Shown here: in pieces, positions 13,324-52,828 of the stretch | Position numbering within the stretch: the stretch's first letter is position 1 | How the letters are laid out: each line of letters begins with the position of its first letter | From: a bacterium | GTDB taxonomy: Bacteria > Bacillota_I > Bacilli_A > RFN20 > CAG-826 | Reading direction: 5' to 3' | Length of the DNA stretch: 64,000 bases | Assembly: GCA_963593015.1 (NCBI GenBank) | Contig: CAVAYV010000015.1 | Coordinates: 5,976-69,975 of the forward strand | Position numbers and translations under genes: made by a program | Notes under the pieces: model-generated | Database searches by the model: none | What the model was told of the DNA's origin: nothing | What the model saw: only the letters and a program-made list of their open reading frames with translations

Positions 13324-13349
13324 AGATTTATTTTAATTAAAAGCCATAA

Positions 13350-13437
13350 AGAAAACCACCGCACAGGAGGATTTGATTTAAGGCTGCTACATTCCTGTCC
13401 TGACCTGGTTCGTCAATTCGACCTCGCGATGGCGTTC
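13350..13437 (-). ncRNA. ffs: Small SRP RNA (4.5S / scRNA-like)
   Basis: The minus strand reads …CCAGGTCAGGACAGGAATGTAGCAGCC…, matching the universally conserved SRP RNA domain IV (E. coli CCAGGUCAGGUCCGGAAGGAAGCAGCC) with a GGAA tetraloop on an ACA/UGU stem. The 5' end (GCCATCGCGAGG) and 3' end (CCTCCTGTGCGGTGG) pair to close the molecule. A TATAAT lies just upstream on the minus strand. Confidence 0.75.
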
Positions 13438-13453
13438 TTATTATACTAGATTT

Positions 13454-42627: not shown

Positions 42628-42737
42628 AATTACAAATTATATATGGACGCTTTGGCTGTTAGAACAAAAACGTTTCATTGACCATCGGCGATTTCTATTT
42701 TCTAGAAAACAAACATACTTTTGTCTATACTAGGCTG

Positions 42738-43727
42738 ATGAATATTATTTTGCTTTCAGGTGGATCGGGAAGAAGACTTTGGCCATTATCTCATGATGCG
42801 AGAGCCAAACAATTTGTCCCGTTCTTTAAAGATAGGGATGGCCGTTACGAATCAATGATCCAAAGAATGTATCGTTCTTTGAAAAAAATCAGTCCAGACG
42901 CTAATATCGTCATCGCTTCTGGAGTTGACCAGGTTCCGCTGCTAAAAGAACAACTTGGTGAAAATATCGATATTTCAATCGAACCATCTAGGAAGGATAC
43001 CTACCCTGCGATAGTTTTGGCTTGCGCATATTTAAGGGATGTTTTAAAGGTCGACCAAAACGAAACCGTCATTGTTTGCCCTGTTGATCCTTACGTTGAA
43101 GATTCTTATTTTAAAGCCATCAAAGAGCTCAGCGAAATCATCGAAAAAGATGAAGCGAAGATTTCTCTAATCGGGGTAAAACCGACTGAGCCTACTTCCA
43201 AATATGGCTATATTATGCCAAAAGACGAAAAGAAGATTAGCAAAGTCATTGGCTTTAGAGAGAAACCAGATTTCGATAAGGCCAAAGAATATATTCGTCA
43301 AGGTGGATTATGGAATACTGCAATTATGGGATTCCGTTTAAATTACTTGCTTGATAAAGCTGAGAAAAAACTCAATTTCAAAGATTATGATTCGTTTCTG
43401 CAAGGATATTCATTGCTAAACAAATCAAATATTTCTTATGACTTGCTAGAAAAGGAAGAAGATATTCAGGTTTTGACATTTGAAGGCATATGGGATGATT
43501 TGGGGTCTTGGGACACTTTTATTAAATTGATGGATGAAGATACTTATGGACAAGGCGTTATCCGTAATTCCTACAATACAAAAGTCGTTAACGAAACCGA
43601 TATTCCTGTAGTGGTGAATTACATCGACAATGCGAACATAATCATTTCAAAAAATGGAATTTATATCACGCGAAACGATAAATCGGATGACATAAAAGAA
43701 ATTCTTTCTTCTTTAGAAAAGAAATAA
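42738..43727 (+). CDS. Sugar-phosphate nucleotidyltransferase (mannose-1-phosphate guanylyltransferase-like)
   Basis: Start taken at MNIILLSGGSGRRLWPLS…, the nucleotidyltransferase G-loop. The ORF-track start at 42678 adds 20 residues of unlikely leader. Confidence 0.6.
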   Translation: MNIILLSGGSGRRLWPLSHDARAKQFVPFFKDRDGRYESMIQRMYRSLKKISPDANIVIASGVDQVPLLKEQLGENIDISIEPSRKDTYPAIVLACAYLRDVLKVDQNETVIVCPVDPYVEDSYFKAIKELSEIIEKDEAKISLIGVKPTEPTSKYGYIMPKDEKKISKVIGFREKPDFDKAKEYIRQGGLWNTAIMGFRLNYLLDKAEKKLNFKDYDSFLQGYSLLNKSNISYDLLEKEEDIQVLTFEGIWDDLGSWDTFIKLMDEDTYGQGVIRNSYNTKVVNETDIPVVVNYIDNANIIISKNGIYITRNDKSDDIKEILSSLEKK

Positions 43728-43802
43728 AAAATATTTCCAAAGCCAGCGACTTTGAACCTTGCTTCTTTTATTAATAAAAGAATTTGTTAAGATTATTTCA
43801 TT

Positions 43803-44363
43803 ATGAAAAAAGTATTGGTTTTATACACAAGCAACACCGGATCTACCGAAACATACGCCAACGATATTGCTCATGGAGTCGATGGCGATGTCATGCCATT
43901 AAAAAAATTCAGATGGAAGAATATCGATGACTATCAAATAGTGGTCTATGGCGGCTGGGTCAATAACGGCGCCATTCAAGGCATCAATGATTTTTTATAT
44001 GATTATGAAAATCGTTTAGCAAACAAAGATGTTTTGATTTTTAGCTGCGGTATGTCTTTTCCTACTGAAAATGGCCGCAAAGAATTAATCGACAGAAACT
44101 ATTTGAGCCCATACCATGTCCGCTTTTATCAAGTTCGCGGAAGCTTTGATTTCAAGAAACTCAACATCTTTCAAAAAATGATTATGAAATCATCAATCAA
44201 GATGATTGCCAATTCAGCGGATGCTACGCCCGAACAAAAAATGCTTACCACAGTTCTGGATGCTCCTCTTGAATACTATGATAGAGAAAAAGTGGAACGT
44301 ATTCTGACAGTCATTAGAAAACTACAGGATGAGCCTATCGAAACTGAGGTTAGCGAGAAATGA
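43803..44363 (+). CDS. Flavodoxin-family protein
   Basis: MKKVLVLYTSNTGSTE… flavodoxin-like phosphate-binding loop. Confidence 0.55.
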   Translation: MKKVLVLYTSNTGSTETYANDIAHGVDGDVMPLKKFRWKNIDDYQIVVYGGWVNNGAIQGINDFLYDYENRLANKDVLIFSCGMSFPTENGRKELIDRNYLSPYHVRFYQVRGSFDFKKLNIFQKMIMKSSIKMIANSADATPEQKMLTTVLDAPLEYYDREKVERILTVIRKLQDEPIETEVSEK

Positions 44364-44979: not shown

Positions 44980-47900
44980 TTGCCTACTCCCCCTCTCCAT
45001 GACAAGAAGGGTCCTTTTGTTACTAATGACACAATCGGAACTGCCTTGCTTGTTGGAGGACTTTTTGCCCAAAAAAAAGACAACTACGCAATTGTCGCGA
45101 ATAATCTTTATAGCGCTCAAAAAATCTATGAGTTTTTGTTGAATTTCTTTTCAGAAGAAGAAGTCGTTTTTTTCCCAGTTGACGAATTGCTTAGAGCGGA
45201 GGCCATCTCATCTAGCAGAGACCTATTGAGCCAACGCCTTTATGCGATGGGCCAATTGTTAAATGATAGCAAGAAGATTTTAGTGACTCATCCTGGTGCT
45301 TTGCTCCGTTATTTGCCAAACCCGAAAATCTTTAAAAAGAGCATTATAAAAATAGAAAAAGGCTGCAAAACCGACTTAGAAAATCTTAAATTTCAGTTAA
45401 CAGAACTCGGATATCGCAGAGTTAATAAGATTGATCAATCTCTGCAATTCGCTTCTAGAGGCGATATTTTAGATATTTATTCTGTTTCAAGCTTAAAACC
45501 TTATCGTGTGGAGTTTTTTGATGATGAAATCGAATCAATTAGAGAATTCGACATTGCCTCTCAAAGCAGTGAGAAAGAAGTGGATTCGATCACGGTTTTG
45601 CCCGCTTCCGACTTCTTGCTTACCGATGGTGAGCTTTCTAGTTTTGTGAATAGAATCAAAGAGCAGATAGAAGAAGAAAAGGCAAAACTCAATTCTACAA
45701 ACGGGGATCTGCTTGAGCAAAATGTTCTGATCGATGTCGAGAACATCGTTTCAAAAAATATAAAGCCAAACCTATATAAATATTATTCTTACGCTTTGAA
45801 CGAGGCGCATTCGATTGTTGAATATTTCAACCCTGTCGATATATTCATTGCCTGCAAAGACGACTTTAGTAACGCGGTTGCTACTTTGAAAGACGAATCT
45901 TATAGATTCTTTAAAGAGCTAGAAGACAATCATCAAATCATCCATGGGCTTTCTAGTTATATGAATGTGGAAGACGCCTTGCCAAATAATAAAATCGTTT
46001 CTTATGGGCAAAAGTTTTTAACAGATTCTAAAGAATTCCAATTAAATGTTTTACCAATCGTTCCTTCTGGGAATGGAATTTCTTCGATTCTTCCGACGCT
46101 TGTTAGTTACTTTAACACCTGCGATAAAGTCATCATTGCTTTAGGGGAGCCTCACCAAAGGGAAACAATCAAAAACATTCTCAAAGATGCAAATTATGAA
46201 TTTGAAGAAATTGAAGGATATTCTTTGCCTAAAGGGAAAATAGGCATTTCCAACGCTTCTTTGAATTTAGGATTTGAAATTCCACTGGCTAAGATTGCTT
46301 ATGTTTCGACTTCGGAATTGTTTGGTAAGCGGGTCAGCGGGTCTCGCTATACGGCAAGATTCAAAAATGCCACAATATTAAAAACTTACGAAGAGCTAAA
46401 GCCTGGTGATTATGTTGTTCACGAATATAATGGGATTGGTCAATTTTTAGGGATAAAGACCTTAGAAAACGATGGGGCTCATCGAGACTATTTGCATATT
46501 GCTTACGCTGGTAATCAGACTCTTTATGTTCCTTTGGAACAATTCCGCTTGGTTAGAAAATATTCCGGAAGAGAAGGAATTGCCCCTCGTCTTTCTAGAC
46601 TTTCTGGAAACGATTGGAAAAAGAAAAAGGCTCATATCGAAGAAAGAGTCAACGAATTGGCGGACCGTTTAATCACTCTTTATGGAACAAGGGCCAAAAT
46701 CCAAGGGTATGCTTTTCCGCCTGATGATGAATTCCAAGAAAAGTTCGAAAATGAGTTCCCCCACGAATTGACCAATGATCAAGCCAAAGCCGTTGCTGAA
46801 GTTAAGGCCGATATGGAAAAGCCTGAAATTATGGACAGGCTTTTATGCGGCGATGTTGGATTCGGCAAAACCGAGGTAGCTTTTAGGGCTTGCTTTAAGG
46901 CTATTAATTCTGGCAAACAAGCCGCGATTTTGTGCCCAACCACCTTATTGGCAAGGCAACATTATGAAGTGGCGTTAGAACGCTTTTCGTCATTTGGCAT
47001 CAGAATTGCATTGTTTTCGCGCTTGGTTCCTGAATCAATTCAAAAAGTAAAGATGAAAGAAGTGAAAGACGGAACAACAAATTTAATCATTGGCACGCAC
47101 CGCCTTTTATCAAAAGAAATCGAATTTAACGATCTTGGGTTACTTGTGATCGACGAAGAGCAACGCTTTGGCGTTGAACAAAAAGAAAGAATTAAAGAAA
47201 TCAAAAATAGCGTTGATGTTCTTTCTTTATCGGCGACCCCGATTCCTCGAACCCTGCAAATGTCATTGGTGGGAATTCGTCCATTAAGTGAAATTAACAG
47301 TGCCCCATCTACGAGAATGCCTATCCAAACCTATGTCACGCCGTATAATTCATCATCAATCTATGAATTAATTTATCGAGAGCTTTCGAGAGAAGGGCAG
47401 GTTTTCTATATCCACAATCACATCGACTCCATTTACCAAAAAGCCGAAGATATCGCTTCTAATATCAAAGAAGCCAAAGTTGGTGTCGTGCATGGAAAAA
47501 TGGAAAAATCCGATATCGAAGAAACAATGGAACGCTTCTACAACAATGAATTAAATGTTTTAGTGGCGACTTCTATTATCGAAAACGGAATCGATGTCCC
47601 TAATGCGAACATGATTATCGTTGAAGATGCCGATCATTTTGGGCTATCGCAACTTTATCAAATCAAAGGAAGAGTCGGTCGTGGCGATAGAATCGCGTAT
47701 GCATATTTGACTTACAAGCCAAATAAAAATATGAATGAAGACGCCCAAAAGCGTCTAGAAGCCATCCAGGAATTCACTGAACTTGGCAGCGGCTATAAGA
47801 TTGCTCAAAGGGATTTGCTGATTCGTGGGGCTGGGGATATGCTAGGTCCTGAGCAAGCTGGTTTTATTGATACGATTGGCCTAGATTTGTATTTGAAGCT

Positions 47901-48414
47901 TTTGAATGAAGCCATCGAAGAAAAGAAAACAGGCGTCAAAAAAGAAGCCCCTAAAGCTAAATCTTTGTTCTCAATCGATGCCTATATACCTTCAAATTAT
48001 GCGATAAATTCCGATAAAATCAGTTTGTACCAAGAACTAGAAGATGCCGATAGCGAAGCAGATGTAAAACTTATCGCTAAGCATATGAAAGATGTGTACG
48101 GGAAGCCTCCAAAGGAAGTCTTGCTTCTTATTCAAAAAAAGAGAATTGACATTGTTGTGGAGAATGAAGAATTTACTTATGTTCGCCAAGAAGGCAATTA
48201 TATAGATATTCTTCTTTCAGAATCATTTTCAAGAATCGATGGTGTCGGAATCGAATTATTCAATGCCTTAACGCCGTTTTTAAAAGAAATATCGGTAAAT
48301 TTCTTAGAGAAAAAACTTCGCATCCGTTTAAAGAAAAACGATGGTTGGATTGATAATTTGGAAAAAATAACCAAAACGATTCACGCGATCGCTTTAAGAC
48401 ACAGTCAGAACTAA
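44980..48414 (+). CDS. mfd: Transcription-repair coupling factor
   Basis: 1144 aa with a UvrB-homology N-terminus, RNAP-interaction domain, superfamily-2 helicase motifs (GDVGFGKTEVA, DEEQRFG) and a TRG motif. The start is the first in-frame start codon, TTG at 44980. The true start is uncertain. Confidence 0.9.
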   Translation: MPTPPLHDKKGPFVTNDTIGTALLVGGLFAQKKDNYAIVANNLYSAQKIYEFLLNFFSEEEVVFFPVDELLRAEAISSSRDLLSQRLYAMGQLLNDSKKILVTHPGALLRYLPNPKIFKKSIIKIEKGCKTDLENLKFQLTELGYRRVNKIDQSLQFASRGDILDIYSVSSLKPYRVEFFDDEIESIREFDIASQSSEKEVDSITVLPASDFLLTDGELSSFVNRIKEQIEEEKAKLNSTNGDLLEQNVLIDVENIVSKNIKPNLYKYYSYALNEAHSIVEYFNPVDIFIACKDDFSNAVATLKDESYRFFKELEDNHQIIHGLSSYMNVEDALPNNKIVSYGQKFLTDSKEFQLNVLPIVPSGNGISSILPTLVSYFNTCDKVIIALGEPHQRETIKNILKDANYEFEEIEGYSLPKGKIGISNASLNLGFEIPLAKIAYVSTSELFGKRVSGSRYTARFKNATILKTYEELKPGDYVVHEYNGIGQFLGIKTLENDGAHRDYLHIAYAGNQTLYVPLEQFRLVRKYSGREGIAPRLSRLSGNDWKKKKAHIEERVNELADRLITLYGTRAKIQGYAFPPDDEFQEKFENEFPHELTNDQAKAVAEVKADMEKPEIMDRLLCGDVGFGKTEVAFRACFKAINSGKQAAILCPTTLLARQHYEVALERFSSFGIRIALFSRLVPESIQKVKMKEVKDGTTNLIIGTHRLLSKEIEFNDLGLLVIDEEQRFGVEQKERIKEIKNSVDVLSLSATPIPRTLQMSLVGIRPLSEINSAPSTRMPIQTYVTPYNSSSIYELIYRELSREGQVFYIHNHIDSIYQKAEDIASNIKEAKVGVVHGKMEKSDIEETMERFYNNELNVLVATSIIENGIDVPNANMIIVEDADHFGLSQLYQIKGRVGRGDRIAYAYLTYKPNKNMNEDAQKRLEAIQEFTELGSGYKIAQRDLLIRGAGDMLGPEQAGFIDTIGLDLYLKLLNEAIEEKKTGVKKEAPKAKSLFSIDAYIPSNYAINSDKISLYQELEDADSEADVKLIAKHMKDVYGKPPKEVLLLIQKKRIDIVVENEEFTYVRQEGNYIDILLSESFSRIDGVGIELFNALTPFLKEISVNFLEKKLRIRLKKNDGWIDNLEKITKTIHAIALRHSQN

Positions 48415-48425
48415 AGGAGTGGAAA

Positions 48426-48695
48426 ATGAGAATTGATAAGTTTTTAAAAGTGTCACGCTTGATCAAAAGAAGGGAGACCGCCAAAGAGCTTTGCGATGAT
48501 GGCGATGTTTTGATTAATGGCAAGATTGCTAAGCCGATGGCTGAAATAAAAGAAGGCGACATCGTCACGTTGATTTTGGGAAAGAAAATCATCAAAGTCA
48601 AAATCAATGAAGTGAGGCCATTTGCCAAAAAAGAGCAAGCTTCTTTGATGACCGAGATCATAGAAGAGGGGTTTGCTAAGGATTCCGAAGAATAG
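48426..48695 (+). CDS. rqcP: S4-domain RNA-binding protein (YabO/Hsp15-like, RqcP)
   Basis: 89 aa, MRIDKFLKVSRLIKRRETAKELCDDGDVLINGKIAKP…, at the conserved position after mfd. Confidence 0.7.
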   Translation: MRIDKFLKVSRLIKRRETAKELCDDGDVLINGKIAKPMAEIKEGDIVTLILGKKIIKVKINEVRPFAKKEQASLMTEIIEEGFAKDSEE

Positions 48696-48802
48696 AATCT
48701 TAGTTACTAGACGATTTAAGCAAATCAATGCCAAAAAGAAATATTCGATAAATAAACGAAAATTAAGCAAATTTAATCTTTCTAGAATGAAGCTAGGAAT
48801 CT

Positions 48803-48829
48803 ATAATTGTAACACCCCTTAAGGGGTGT
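48803..48829 (+). promoter_or_regulatory. TATAAT followed by an 18-bp perfect palindrome ACACCCCTTAAGGGGTGT upstream of ftsH
   Basis: The -10-like hexamer is at 48803-48808. The palindrome spans 48812-48829, and 22 bp with one mismatch if the GTAAC flanks are included. Confidence 0.4.
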
Positions 48830-48902
48830 AACTAACTAAGACCAATAAAAGAAAACCCTGGATTGTTAATAGAGCAGTCACGAAATCGAAGGAGGGGAAA
48901 AT

Positions 48903-51215
48903 ATGGATGATAATAACAACAAAAACAATGGGCAGAATCGTCGCAATTTCTTAAGCTATATCATTCCTTACGTTTTAATCGCCGGAATCATTATTCTTAT
49001 AATCACTTTTTTCTTGCGTAATGTCATAAATAGCCAAACTCTTTGGACCAAAAGCCAATTGAACGCCTATTTACGTACAGATGAAACCTCTTTAAATAGC
49101 GATAACAAAAATGGCGTTTATTTAAAAAGCGTCGAGGTTTCGCAAGGATATCGCGCAACCACTGTTACTGGCGTTGCTCGCAATGCCTCCACCAGCAATG
49201 AATATCGTTATAAAGTTTTGATTGAAAACGATGATTGGAGCAAGAACAAATTTGACGCTCAAATGTTTACTGGTACGACCACTGCCGAAACAGATGGCAA
49301 AACGACAATCATTGCCCAATACACGACAAAGTCCGTTACTTGGAGTGAGGTTTTCTTTAACCGTATTCAAGAAACCAATGATTTAAAAATCTTATCTGGA
49401 AATCAAATCGCTTATTATCAAGTCACTGATGCTTTTGCCGTCAGCTGGTGGGATACATGGGGTCCAACTATCATCATGCTTGTCGGCACAATGATCCTTG
49501 TGCTTTTCATCTTTGGCAGAATGAGTGGCTCAATGGGTGGCGGACGCCAAGCTCTTGATTTCAATAAGTCTCCAGCTCGTCGAGAAACAAGCAAAGTCCG
49601 TTTTGCTGATGTCGCTGGATGCGATGAAGAAAAAGCGGAAATGGTTGAGCTTGTCGAATATTTGAAGAATCCAAAGAAATATTCTAAGTTCGGCGCTCGT
49701 TTGCCAAAAGGCGTTCTTTTATGCGGCAATCCAGGAACTGGTAAAACCTTGATGGCAAAAGCCGTTGCAGGCGAAGCCGGCGTGCCTTTCTATAGCATCT
49801 CTGGTTCCGATTTCGTTGAGATGTTCGTCGGCGTCGGTGCTGGACGTGTCCGTGATTTGTTCAAACGTGCCAAGCAAAGCGCTCCTTGCATTATCTTCAT
49901 TGATGAAATCGACGCTGTCGGCCGTCAAAGAGGAGCTGGCTTAGGCGGAGGCAACGATGAACGTGAACAAACCCTTAACCAACTTTTGGTTGAAATGGAT
50001 GGTTTTGAATACAATGCTGGCATCTTAGTTATCGCTGCCACTAACCGCGACGATGTACTTGACCCAGCCTTATTACGCCCGGGACGTTTTGATAGAATCA
50101 TTACCGTTTCCTTGCCAGACTGCAAAGGAAGAGAAGCAATCTTTAAGGTTCATTCAAGAAATAAACGCATCGATCCTTCTGTCGATTTCCACGCTCTTGC
50201 TAAGCGCACCGTCGGATTCTCTGGCGCCGATATTGATAACATTTTAAACGAAGCTGCCATCTTGGCGGTTCGCTTCAATAAAGAGACTATCACCATGGCG
50301 GAAATCGATGAAGCTATCGATCGCCGTATTGCCGGCCCAGCCAAATCTGGCAAAGGCATGAACGAGCAAGAGAAACGTGTTGATGCCTACCATGAGGCTG
50401 GCCATGCCGTAATCGGCTTAGTCTTGCCTCATTCTAACAAAGTCCAAAAGATCACTATTATTCCAAGAGGACAAACGGGCGGTCACGTTCTTATGACTCC
50501 AGAGGATGACCGTTTCTTATTAACCAAGAAAGAATTATTAGCGGAAATCACCGGATTCTTAGGCGGCAGAACCAGCGAAGAAATCTTCTTTGACGATGTT
50601 AGTACCGGCGCTTCTAACGATATCCAACAAGCCACTCGCATCGCTCGTATGATGGTCACGCAATGGGGCATGAGCGATCTAGGCCCGATCCAATACGAAC
50701 AAGACCAAGGAAGCGTGTTCTTGGGCAGAGACTATAATAACGTCTCGAAAAACTTCTCAGGCGAAGTCGCTTATCAAATCGATAAAGCCGTTCGCGAAAT
50801 TGTTGAAGAATGTCACAAGCAAGCTAAAGAAATCATTGTAGCTCATAAAAACGAAGTCATTCTCATTGCTGAAACCTTGCTTGAGAAAGAAACAATCACC
50901 GCCGAAGAGATTGATGAACTTATCAAAAATGGCTCTTTGACTGAGAAAAAGACTGAGACCGTCAACCAGGTTAATGTCTCAGAAGAGGACAAAGCCAATG
51001 CAGCTAAAATCGCCAAAGCCTCTAATTTGACTACGCAACTTCCTGCAAAGGAAACTAAAAAAGAAGAAGCCAAAGAAGTTGAAGCGGTCGCCAAAAAATC
51101 TCCAAAAGATGAAAAGGCCACCGAAGATACTCCTAAGGTAAGTAAACCAAGACGCATTCGCAAAAAGAAAAACGAATCCCTTGATGAGCCTGATGACACC
51201 ATTCATCTCAAATGA
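48903..51215 (+). CDS. ftsH: ATP-dependent zinc metalloprotease FtsH
   Basis: 770 aa with an extended extracytoplasmic N-domain between two TM helices, AAA module ([25 protein letters not shown]), SRH, the HEAGHA zinc site, and a long charged C-tail. Confidence 0.95.
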
Positions 51216-51222
51216 TTAAGCT

Positions 51223-51252
51223 AAAGCCATTCATTTACGAGTGGCTTTTTCT
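51223..51252 (+). terminator. Terminator after ftsH (AAAGCCA…TGGCTTT plus T-run)
   Basis: A 7-bp stem with a 12-nt loop followed by TTTTTCT. Confidence 0.5.
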
Positions 51253-52284: not shown

Positions 52285-52324
52285 TCGGTCTATTCAAAAT
52301 CTTTAAAGAAATACCAAAAATATC

Positions 52325-52371
52325 TTGACCATTTTTAACTTATAACTATAATCGTTCGTTGCCGAACGAAC
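52325..52371 (+). promoter_or_regulatory. marR promoter (TTGACC-16 bp-TATAAT) with a downstream inverted repeat GTTCGTT-gccg-AACGAAC abutting the start codon
   Basis: The -35 is at 52325-52330, the -10 at 52347-52352, and the inverted repeat at 52354-52371. The ATG is at 52373 with no SD. Confidence 0.55.
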
Positions 52372-52372
52372 T

Positions 52373-52828
52373 ATGGAAAAGAATGTCACGGAAATCGGAT
52401 CAGAATTAAGAATCACAAACCACGATGTCAAGGTGTTTGTGGATCGCGCTGTAGCGGCAAGTCTTCCTAGATACTTAACCGGTATTGAAGGAGTGCTTGT
52501 GAACTACATTTTTGAGCATGAGCAGATAACCGCTTGCGATTGTATGCGTGATTTCAATCTTTCTAAAGCCACGGTAAGCGAGACTTTTCGGAAACTGATC
52601 GATCGTGATTTTATTAAGGAAATCACCGATGAGCATGACAAAAGAAGAAAAATCATCACGCTTACCGCGAAGGGAAAAGAAGCGCACTTCACTTTCCAAA
52701 GACTTTATGACTCACTTGTGCCAATTATCGAGGAAGGCATCAGTGAAGAGGAGAAAGAGACATTCTTAAAAGTGTGCGTTAAGATTCGAAAAAACGTAGG
52801 AGGGATTTATGAGCAAAATCAAGAATAA
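52373..52828 (+). CDS. MarR family transcriptional regulator
   Basis: 151 aa with a wHTH region (…ITACDCMRDFNLSKATVSETFRKLIDRDFIKEITDEHDKRRKIITLTAKG…). Confidence 0.75.
   Translation: MEKNVTEIGSELRITNHDVKVFVDRAVAASLPRYLTGIEGVLVNYIFEHEQITACDCMRDFNLSKATVSETFRKLIDRDFIKEITDEHDKRRKIITLTAKGKEAHFTFQRLYDSLVPIIEEGISEEEKETFLKVCVKIRKNVGGIYEQNQE

Follow-up and report, generated by a model that had tools for sequence, protein, structure and literature searches.

The perfect palindrome at the ftsH promoter of this uncultured lineage of the Bacilli is best read as a GC-rich RNA stem-loop that was inherited from the overlap of a terminator with a promoter and that now probably lies close to the 5' end of the ftsH mRNA, a reading that we hold with even confidence. 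A conserved repressor operator at this site is not supported. FtsH is an essential protease of membrane quality control and, to our knowledge, its regulation in Firmicutes beyond B. subtilis is poorly known. The DNA analyzed, referred to below as the window, is the whole stretch of 64,000 nucleotides.

The palindrome and the ftsH locus

The genes around ftsH all lie on the forward strand, in the order flavodoxin, pth, mfd (44980-48414), S4-domain gene, ftsH, dus, marR-type gene, and ABC exporter. The elements of the locus that are used below are the following.

48426-48695, forward strand: S4-domain gene (yabO/rqcP-like), with which the upstream mfd operon ends; in relatives it is separated from ftsH by tilS
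48779-48784, forward strand: weak -35 candidate TTTCTA (3/6), 17 nt 5' of TATAAT and under the promoter-scan threshold
48802-48807, forward strand: perfect TATAAT, candidate current -10 of ftsH, specific to the lineage of the window and locus L001; the predicted +1 is A48814
48807-48812, forward strand: TTGTAA, the counterpart of the relatives' conserved -35 (TTGnnn) in the anchored alignment
48809-48832, forward strand: extended imperfect dyad GTAACACCCCTTAAGGGGTGTAAC of 24 bp, with the single mismatched pair A48811/A48830
48812-48829, forward strand: stem-loop ACACCCC-UUAA-GGGGUGU, with a 7-bp stem, 5 G-C pairs, and the loop TTAA in DNA
48829-48834, forward strand: TAACTA, the degenerate counterpart of the conserved -10 (TAWNNT) in the anchored alignment, without the T at -7
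48842-48850, forward strand: CCAATAAAA, first conserved leader block, at a fixed spacing to the second block in relatives
48865-48870, forward strand: GTTAAT, second conserved leader block; AAY-N17/18-GTT, a putative ECF-type promoter or hairpin loop
48890-48897, forward strand: ftsH Shine-Dalgarno sequence AGGAGGGG, complementary to CCCU (48857-48860) and to the 5' arm CCCCUU
48903-51215, forward strand: ftsH, 770 aa, with AAA and Peptidase_M41 domains
51223-51248, forward strand: canonical intrinsic terminator of ftsH with a 10-bp stem and a T-rich tail, which exemplifies the terminators of this genome

Reading of the sequence and a pattern search confirmed the perfect 18-bp palindrome that an earlier note had reported at the ftsH promoter, namely ACACCCCTTAAGGGGTGT at 48812-48829 of the forward strand, in the local context ...GGAATCTATAATTGTAACACCCCTTAAGGGGTGTAACTAACTAAG.... 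The gap of 4 bp to TATAAT given there is correct (TGTA), whereas the hexamer itself had been placed one base too far downstream (48803-48808), and the extension with one mismatch reaches 24 bp rather than 22 bp. In a predicted RNA fold, the outer positions G48809-C48832 and U48810-A48831 of this dyad are paired. The predicted energy of the RNA hairpin is -11.3 to -12.3 kcal/mol, or about -11 to -13 kcal/mol overall. A pattern search that allowed up to 3 mismatches found no second copy in the 64-kb window. A search of Rfam 15 gave no match at the palindrome at gathering score and, at E up to 10, chance-level matches alone in 48600-48960.

The length of the palindrome is not by itself significant and is not evidence of function, because perfect palindromes with arms of at least 9 occurred in 71 of 200 (approximately 35%) first-order Markov shuffles of the window. 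A perfect AT-rich palindrome of 20 bp, TTCTTTTATTAATAAAAGAA, also lies at 43763-43782, between a nucleotidyl-transferase gene (42678-43727) and the flavodoxin gene (43803-44363). What places the ftsH hairpin beyond chance is its recurrence on the same GGGTG block in 15 of 26 distinct orthologous upstream regions.

The TATAAT of the window is absent from the corresponding position in L002, L003, and L167. Together with its weak -35, it resembles the promoter of the SRP RNA gene in the same window (Rfam RF00169, 57.9 bits; 13345-13440, reverse strand), which is likewise preceded by TATAAT with a weak -35. The SRP RNA promoter shows that strong genes here can depend on a perfect -10 alone.

Promoter and hairpin in the relatives

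Orthologous ftsH loci were collected via exact protein look-ups and a metagenome scan. An FtsH identical to that of the window was not found in the protein collection, and the closest was 98% identical (P0001; locus L001). In every relative but L001, the S4 gene and ftsH are separated by tilS (PF01171), which is absent from the ftsH locus in the window and in L001. Neither tblastn nor blastn detected a TilS homologue in the whole 64 kb or a significant tilS trace in 48696-48811; the string GAAGCTAG(G)AAT, which had been likened to the end of tilS in L003, was unsupported as a tilS remnant. The mfd, S4, ftsH, and dus genes of the window use 23 AUA codons. Since AUA is in use and the 64 kb hold no TilS homologue, either tilS lies elsewhere in the genome or another tRNA reads AUA. 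Compared with the window, L001 carries approximately 1.8 kb more between dus and the marR-type gene (5429-7135 of L001 versus 52285-52372 of the window), which contains a minus-strand XRE/HTH_3 gene as well as three small ORFs, none of them present in the window.

The 26 distinct ftsH upstream regions were aligned with the GTG-TA junction as the anchor. As the sequences were chosen by a GTGTA-type anchor, the invariance of the GTGTA block is partly circular; the TTG, the T at -7, and the downstream blocks were not part of the anchor selection. The alignment revealed a conserved block, TTGnnn-N17-TAWNNT, upstream of ftsH. TTG stands exactly 17 nt upstream in 17 of the 26 sequences, at 16 nt in four including the window, and at 18 nt in one; it is absent in the remaining four. 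T occupies the sixth -10 position (-7) in 24 of the 26 and is missing only from the window and L001, which read TAACTA; these two are also the only ones of the 26 with a TATAAT 22 nt further upstream. Judged by a -35 TTG, a spacer of 17 +/- 1 nt, and a -10 of the form TAnnnT, a sigma-70-type promoter is present in 22 of the 26. The counterpart in the window, with its 16-nt spacer and its TAACTA lacking the -7 T, falls short of this pattern.

In relatives the conserved promoter sits just 3' of the tilS stop codon, and more distant relatives carry an unambiguous TTTACA-N17-TATCAT at the same place. We read the block, from its sequence pattern, as a putative ancestral sigma-70-type promoter of ftsH in the short gap after tilS. 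The GGGTG of the 3' arm of the palindrome corresponds to the final five bases of the spacer of this promoter. The claim that the palindrome lies in ftsH promoter DNA thus holds in two ways: it fills the spacer of the relatives' promoter, and in the window it follows a perfect TATAAT. Among the more distant loci (L125, L129-L131, L134, L136, L139-L141, L143, L144, L148, L149, L151, L155, and L156), a clear ftsH promoter, TTTACA-N17-TATCAT/TACTAT, lies approximately 55-75 nt upstream. Its spacer holds a dyad, CAAAAC-N5-GTTTTG, in which arms and spacing stay constant and the centre is free to vary, and this dyad looks more operator-like than the palindrome of the window.

A hairpin of -7 kcal/mol or lower folds onto GGGTG(TA) in 15 of the 26 sequences, and the 5' arm is absent in the other 11. 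For most of the 15, shuffles of the 5' part give far less stable hairpins. L001 carries ACACCCC-GTAA-GGGGTGT, in which the stem is unchanged relative to the window and the loop differs by T to G, and in L002 the tilS stop is followed within a few bases by (T)ACCCCC-TTAT-GGGGGT(G); L172 to L174 share the stem of L002 with the loop ATAA. The core CCCC-N4-GGGG is thus constant in the window, L001, L002, L172, and L174, and its centre varies (TTAA, GTAA, TTAT, ATAA). In L003 and L176 there is only a weak pairing of CACCT with GGGTG, and the hairpin is missing from L167, L168, L169, L171, L175, and L087/088 (FtsH 74-79% identical) despite the same gene order. The window hairpin is the most stable of the 26, L001 and L002 aside. 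Between the window and L001, 7 of 207 intergenic positions differ; the 14 stem bases show no change against 0.5 expected, which is not significant.

Base pairs were tabulated from individual folds, since the loop lengths differ (3, 4, 5, 7, or 8 nt over all hairpins). Among hairpin-bearing relatives that keep both blocks, the distance from CACCC to GGGTG is 3, 4, 5, or 6 nt. Six sequences contain G.U pairs, a C-G, U-A, or G-C pair stands at position -6, and L115/L118 have ACGGG...CCCGT, a flip of three GGG/CCC pairs on both arms. True double-sided covariation comes down to few independent events, since the 3' arm is under a constraint of a different kind. Where the loop is longer, the -35 and the 5' arm stand closer together, which keeps the promoter spacer at its fixed 17 nt. 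Variable spacing with pairing kept is the pattern of a selected stem-loop, and it does not fit a dimer site, which needs a constant half-site spacing.

The position and the tail of the hairpin also differ among lineages. It lies within approximately 4-25 nt of the tilS stop in relatives and 117 nt past the S4 stop in the window. The 10 nt of the tail contain 7-8 U in L096, L106, and L099, where the U-tract of a canonical terminator doubles as an A/T-rich -10, and 3-5 elsewhere; the window has 2 (AACUAACUAA) and L001 has 1.

The stem-loop and its rival readings

The stem-loop reading can be put as a sequence of steps. In about half of the lineages, the spacer bases before GGGTG(TA) have become complementary to it, which places a hairpin directly 3' of the upstream operon. 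Since the -10 of the relatives comes after the hairpin, transcripts of that promoter do not contain it, and it could act only on read-through from mfd-S4-tilS. On such RNA it may serve as a terminator, an insulator, or a 3'-end hairpin, and the pattern among relatives suggests weak termination, insulation, or 3'-end protection. In the lineage of the window, tilS has been lost from the site, the old -10 has decayed to TAACTA, the U-containing tail has disappeared, and a perfect TATAAT stands 4 nt 5' of the stem. ftsH would now be transcribed from this TATAAT with a start near A48814, and the inherited hairpin would form the extreme 5' end of the mRNA. There it could shield the ftsH mRNA from decay that depends on the 5' end and still impede read-through from mfd-S4.

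The resemblance to an intrinsic terminator that overlaps the next promoter lies in the GC-rich stem of 5-8 bp with a short loop right after the upstream stop codon in relatives, and in the identical 18-mer, which forms a terminator hairpin flanked by an A-run and a T-run in many unrelated genomes. The window site differs in its tail and in its distance from the S4 stop: a stable GC-rich stem-loop follows the stop codon, but no U-rich tract lies directly 3' of it. The canonical terminators of this genome carry T-runs, whereas the tail here has 2 U in 10 nt, so that a terminator role in the window is doubtful and weak at best. A terminator scan did not call the site.

In a review, 5' stem-loops are described as established mRNA stabilizers (PMC3997798, citing Emory 1992 and Hambraeus 2002). 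Like the leaders of E. coli ompA and B. subtilis aprE, the predicted TATAAT transcript would have a stable hairpin at or near its 5' end, followed by a long leader and a strong Shine-Dalgarno sequence. Unlike those cases, the hairpin lies outside the ftsH mRNA in relatives with an intact downstream -10, and the start in the window is predicted. The hairpin forms in predicted folds when the RNA starts at 48800 or further upstream, which includes both the read-through and the TATAAT-proximal contexts. RNA that starts at 48814 retains 5 bp of the stem, and its minimum free energy fold favors pairing of CCCCUU with the Shine-Dalgarno sequence. The second proposal of the earlier note, a 5'-terminal stabilizer hairpin, agrees with the geometry, as the predicted +1, A48814, falls inside the 5' arm.

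The marR-type gene of the same window (52373-52828) provides an internal control. It is preceded by TTGACC-16-TATAAT (hexamer at 52347-52352), followed directly by the 18-bp dyad TCGTTCG-TTGC-CGAACGA (feature span 52347-52369). The core GTTCG-N4-CGAAC (52354-52367) has identical half-sites and spacing in the window, L001, L003, L167, L168, L171, and L174, and its centre varies, so this dyad is probably an autoregulatory operator. The marR-type mRNA would be nearly leaderless and without a Shine-Dalgarno sequence. Both dyads are perfect, of similar size (7+4+7), and placed right after TATAAT. In the marR dyad, half-sites and N4 are kept in all relatives, in contrast to the ftsH dyad, whose spacing and arms vary and which many relatives lack. 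The window contains six intergenic hairpins of this class, three of them with U-rich tails, and the other U-less intergenic dyad beside a promoter is the probable marR operator.

One rival proposal is that the palindrome is the operator of a lineage-specific dimeric repressor, with a homodimer on the dyad that would occlude RNA polymerase; we consider it unlikely. The geometry suits it, as the dyad overlaps the core promoter, lying at the TATAAT start directly after a perfect -10 in the window and filling the -35/-10 spacer in the L002 group. Within the subclade of the window and L002 the CCCC-N4-GGGG core is constant around a variable centre, as in operators, and the dyad lacks a U-tract, a feature shared with the probable marR operator. 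Beyond that subclade the likeness ends, since half-sites and centre-to-centre spacing are not conserved at orthologous promoters as they are for marR: the spacing of 3 to 6 nt differs across lineages, G.T pairs break the symmetry, and the dyad is weak in L003 and missing from the close relatives listed above. A second site was found neither in the 64 kb (up to 3 mismatches) nor in 164 kb of DNA from the window plus close relatives, where the ftsH site is the sole intergenic CCCC-N3-6-GGGG or CACCC-N3-8-GGGTG. No candidate regulator gene is linked to ftsH, and the dyad that belongs to the MarR-type gene nearby is a different one. The earlier suggestion of a dimeric repressor operator with a regulon is unsupported on these grounds. 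It is quite improbable that the palindrome is a functionless relic, that is, a former tilS terminator overlapping the ftsH promoter that survives because too little time has passed since tilS was lost. The decay of the U-tail and of the old -10 in the lineage of the window, the non-significant stem conservation between the window and L001, and the repeated loss of the hairpin in relatives agree with such a relic. However, the stem has the high stability noted above and is intact in the window and L001 though their flanks have diverged strongly from L002, and the repeated presence of the hairpin in distant lineages argues for selection on it.

Two further proposals start from known or imagined control of ftsH. 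In one source, the B. subtilis TilS-HprT complex is described as binding two inverted repeats at the ftsH promoter and activating it (PMC8152036, citing Lin, Hu and Shaw 2014); these repeats, IR-I and IR-II, are reported there to lie upstream of the promoter and to have no consensus common to both. A related site here is very unlikely. The palindrome resembles IR-I/IR-II as an inverted repeat at an ftsH promoter in Bacilli with an ancestral tilS-ftsH linkage, adjoining tilS in relatives, but it lies within or after the core promoter, in a comparison made at the level of description. Membership of a TilS-HprT system is not supported, because hprT lies between tilS and ftsH in no relative and the lineage with the best palindrome is exactly the one without tilS next to ftsH or elsewhere in the 64 kb. 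A translational switch or thermometer, in which CCCCUU as an anti-Shine-Dalgarno mimic pairs with the GAGGGG of the Shine-Dalgarno sequence and the 3' arm pairs with ACCCU (48856-48860), thereby tuning the translation of a heat-shock protease, is extremely unlikely. For a start at A48814, the minimum free energy fold does pair CCCCUU with the Shine-Dalgarno sequence and GGGGU with ACCCU, and in longer transcripts CCCU pairs with the Shine-Dalgarno sequence. Yet the z-score of the fold, -0.96, is not significant, the CCCU block is not conserved (it is absent in L002, L172, and L168), and the hairpin cannot participate in relatives whose -10 is intact, where transcription would start downstream of it.

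Known regulatory motifs did not account for the palindrome. CIRCE/HrcA and CtsR operators are comparable as regulatory dyads or repeats at promoters of stress proteases and chaperones in Firmicutes, but the ftsH palindrome has no sequence match to them. CIRCE (TTAGCACTC-N9-GAGTGCTAA) was not found in the window at up to 3 mismatches, and the CtsR box (a GGTCAAA direct repeat) gave matches at chance level in the window and none at the palindrome; we agree with the earlier note that the palindrome is neither. Several further consensus sequences were compared and rejected on sequence grounds. For the SigB-type GTTTAA-N12-15-GGGTAT the spacing is inconsistent, for the SigI-type ACCCCC/CGAA the C-run covaries with the G-run, and the Sigma-32 pattern CCCTTGAA/CCCCAT lacks its -10 partner and belongs to the wrong phylum. 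The NrdR box agrees in the outer ACAC/GTGT alone, and the TnrA site does not match.

When 185,579 species genomes were scanned for ACACCCCKTAAGGGGTGT, 82 matching stretches were obtained in unrelated taxa, none of which adjoins ftsH or comes from the lineage of the window. Most have an A-run on one side and a T-run on the other, as in ordinary terminators, and at least 13 species of Paenibacillus share one conserved locus. At an apparently single locus in many Paenibacillus (L012, L014, L018, L025, L032, L038, L045, L064, L071, L078, L079, and L086), ACACCCCGTAAGGGGTGT followed by TTTTCTTGA is kept, and this hairpin with TTTTCTTGAMA resembles a terminator that directly adjoins a -35. The exact ACACCCCTTAAGGGGTGT is found in Alphaproteobacteria, and in some other Proteobacteria, as the centre of a longer symmetric element, with short repeats of the GGGAC/GTCCC type (or GTGAC, GTCGC) on both sides (L006, L007, L017, L024, L040, L041, L053, L054, L067, L069, L070, L072, L076, L081, L082, and L085).

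Leader blocks and the map of ftsH control

Downstream of the palindrome, the blocks CCAAYAAAA and (C/A/G)GTTAAT lie 13-14 nt apart across relatives whose FtsH is 60-83% identical (L003, L087, L093-L105, and L167-L171). Their conservation extends to relatives that lack the hairpin and the sigma-70-like block. Going by sequence alone, they may be either an ECF-sigma-type promoter (AAC-N17-CGT/GTT) or a leader hairpin with a GUUAAUA loop. For the leader hairpin, stem covariation is seen in L003 and L168, but L093 and L094 have a different register. One published list places B. subtilis ftsH under SigM (PMC8767453). A Pfam scan of ten small window proteins found no ECF sigma gene among them.

It is doubtful that the dyad is the operator of an uncharacterized ftsH regulator peculiar to this uncultured lineage of Bacilli, or part of a temperature-dependent switch between anti-Shine-Dalgarno and Shine-Dalgarno sequences. 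If this were true, the repeated spacer dyads (CACCC/GGGTG, CGGGG/CCCG, and the distant CAAAAC-N5-GTTTTG) would represent a so far undescribed control of ftsH.

With the palindrome read as an evolutionarily labile hairpin, its value is mainly cautionary. A perfect dyad beside TATAAT is insufficient to call an operator, and the marR dyad shows what the conservation of a real one looks like. The comparison also yields a usable map of the ftsH control region for an uncultured clade, with a sigma-70-type promoter whose spacer ends in GGGTG and an AAC-N17-GTT block, and this map shows promoter turnover linked to the loss of tilS from the locus.
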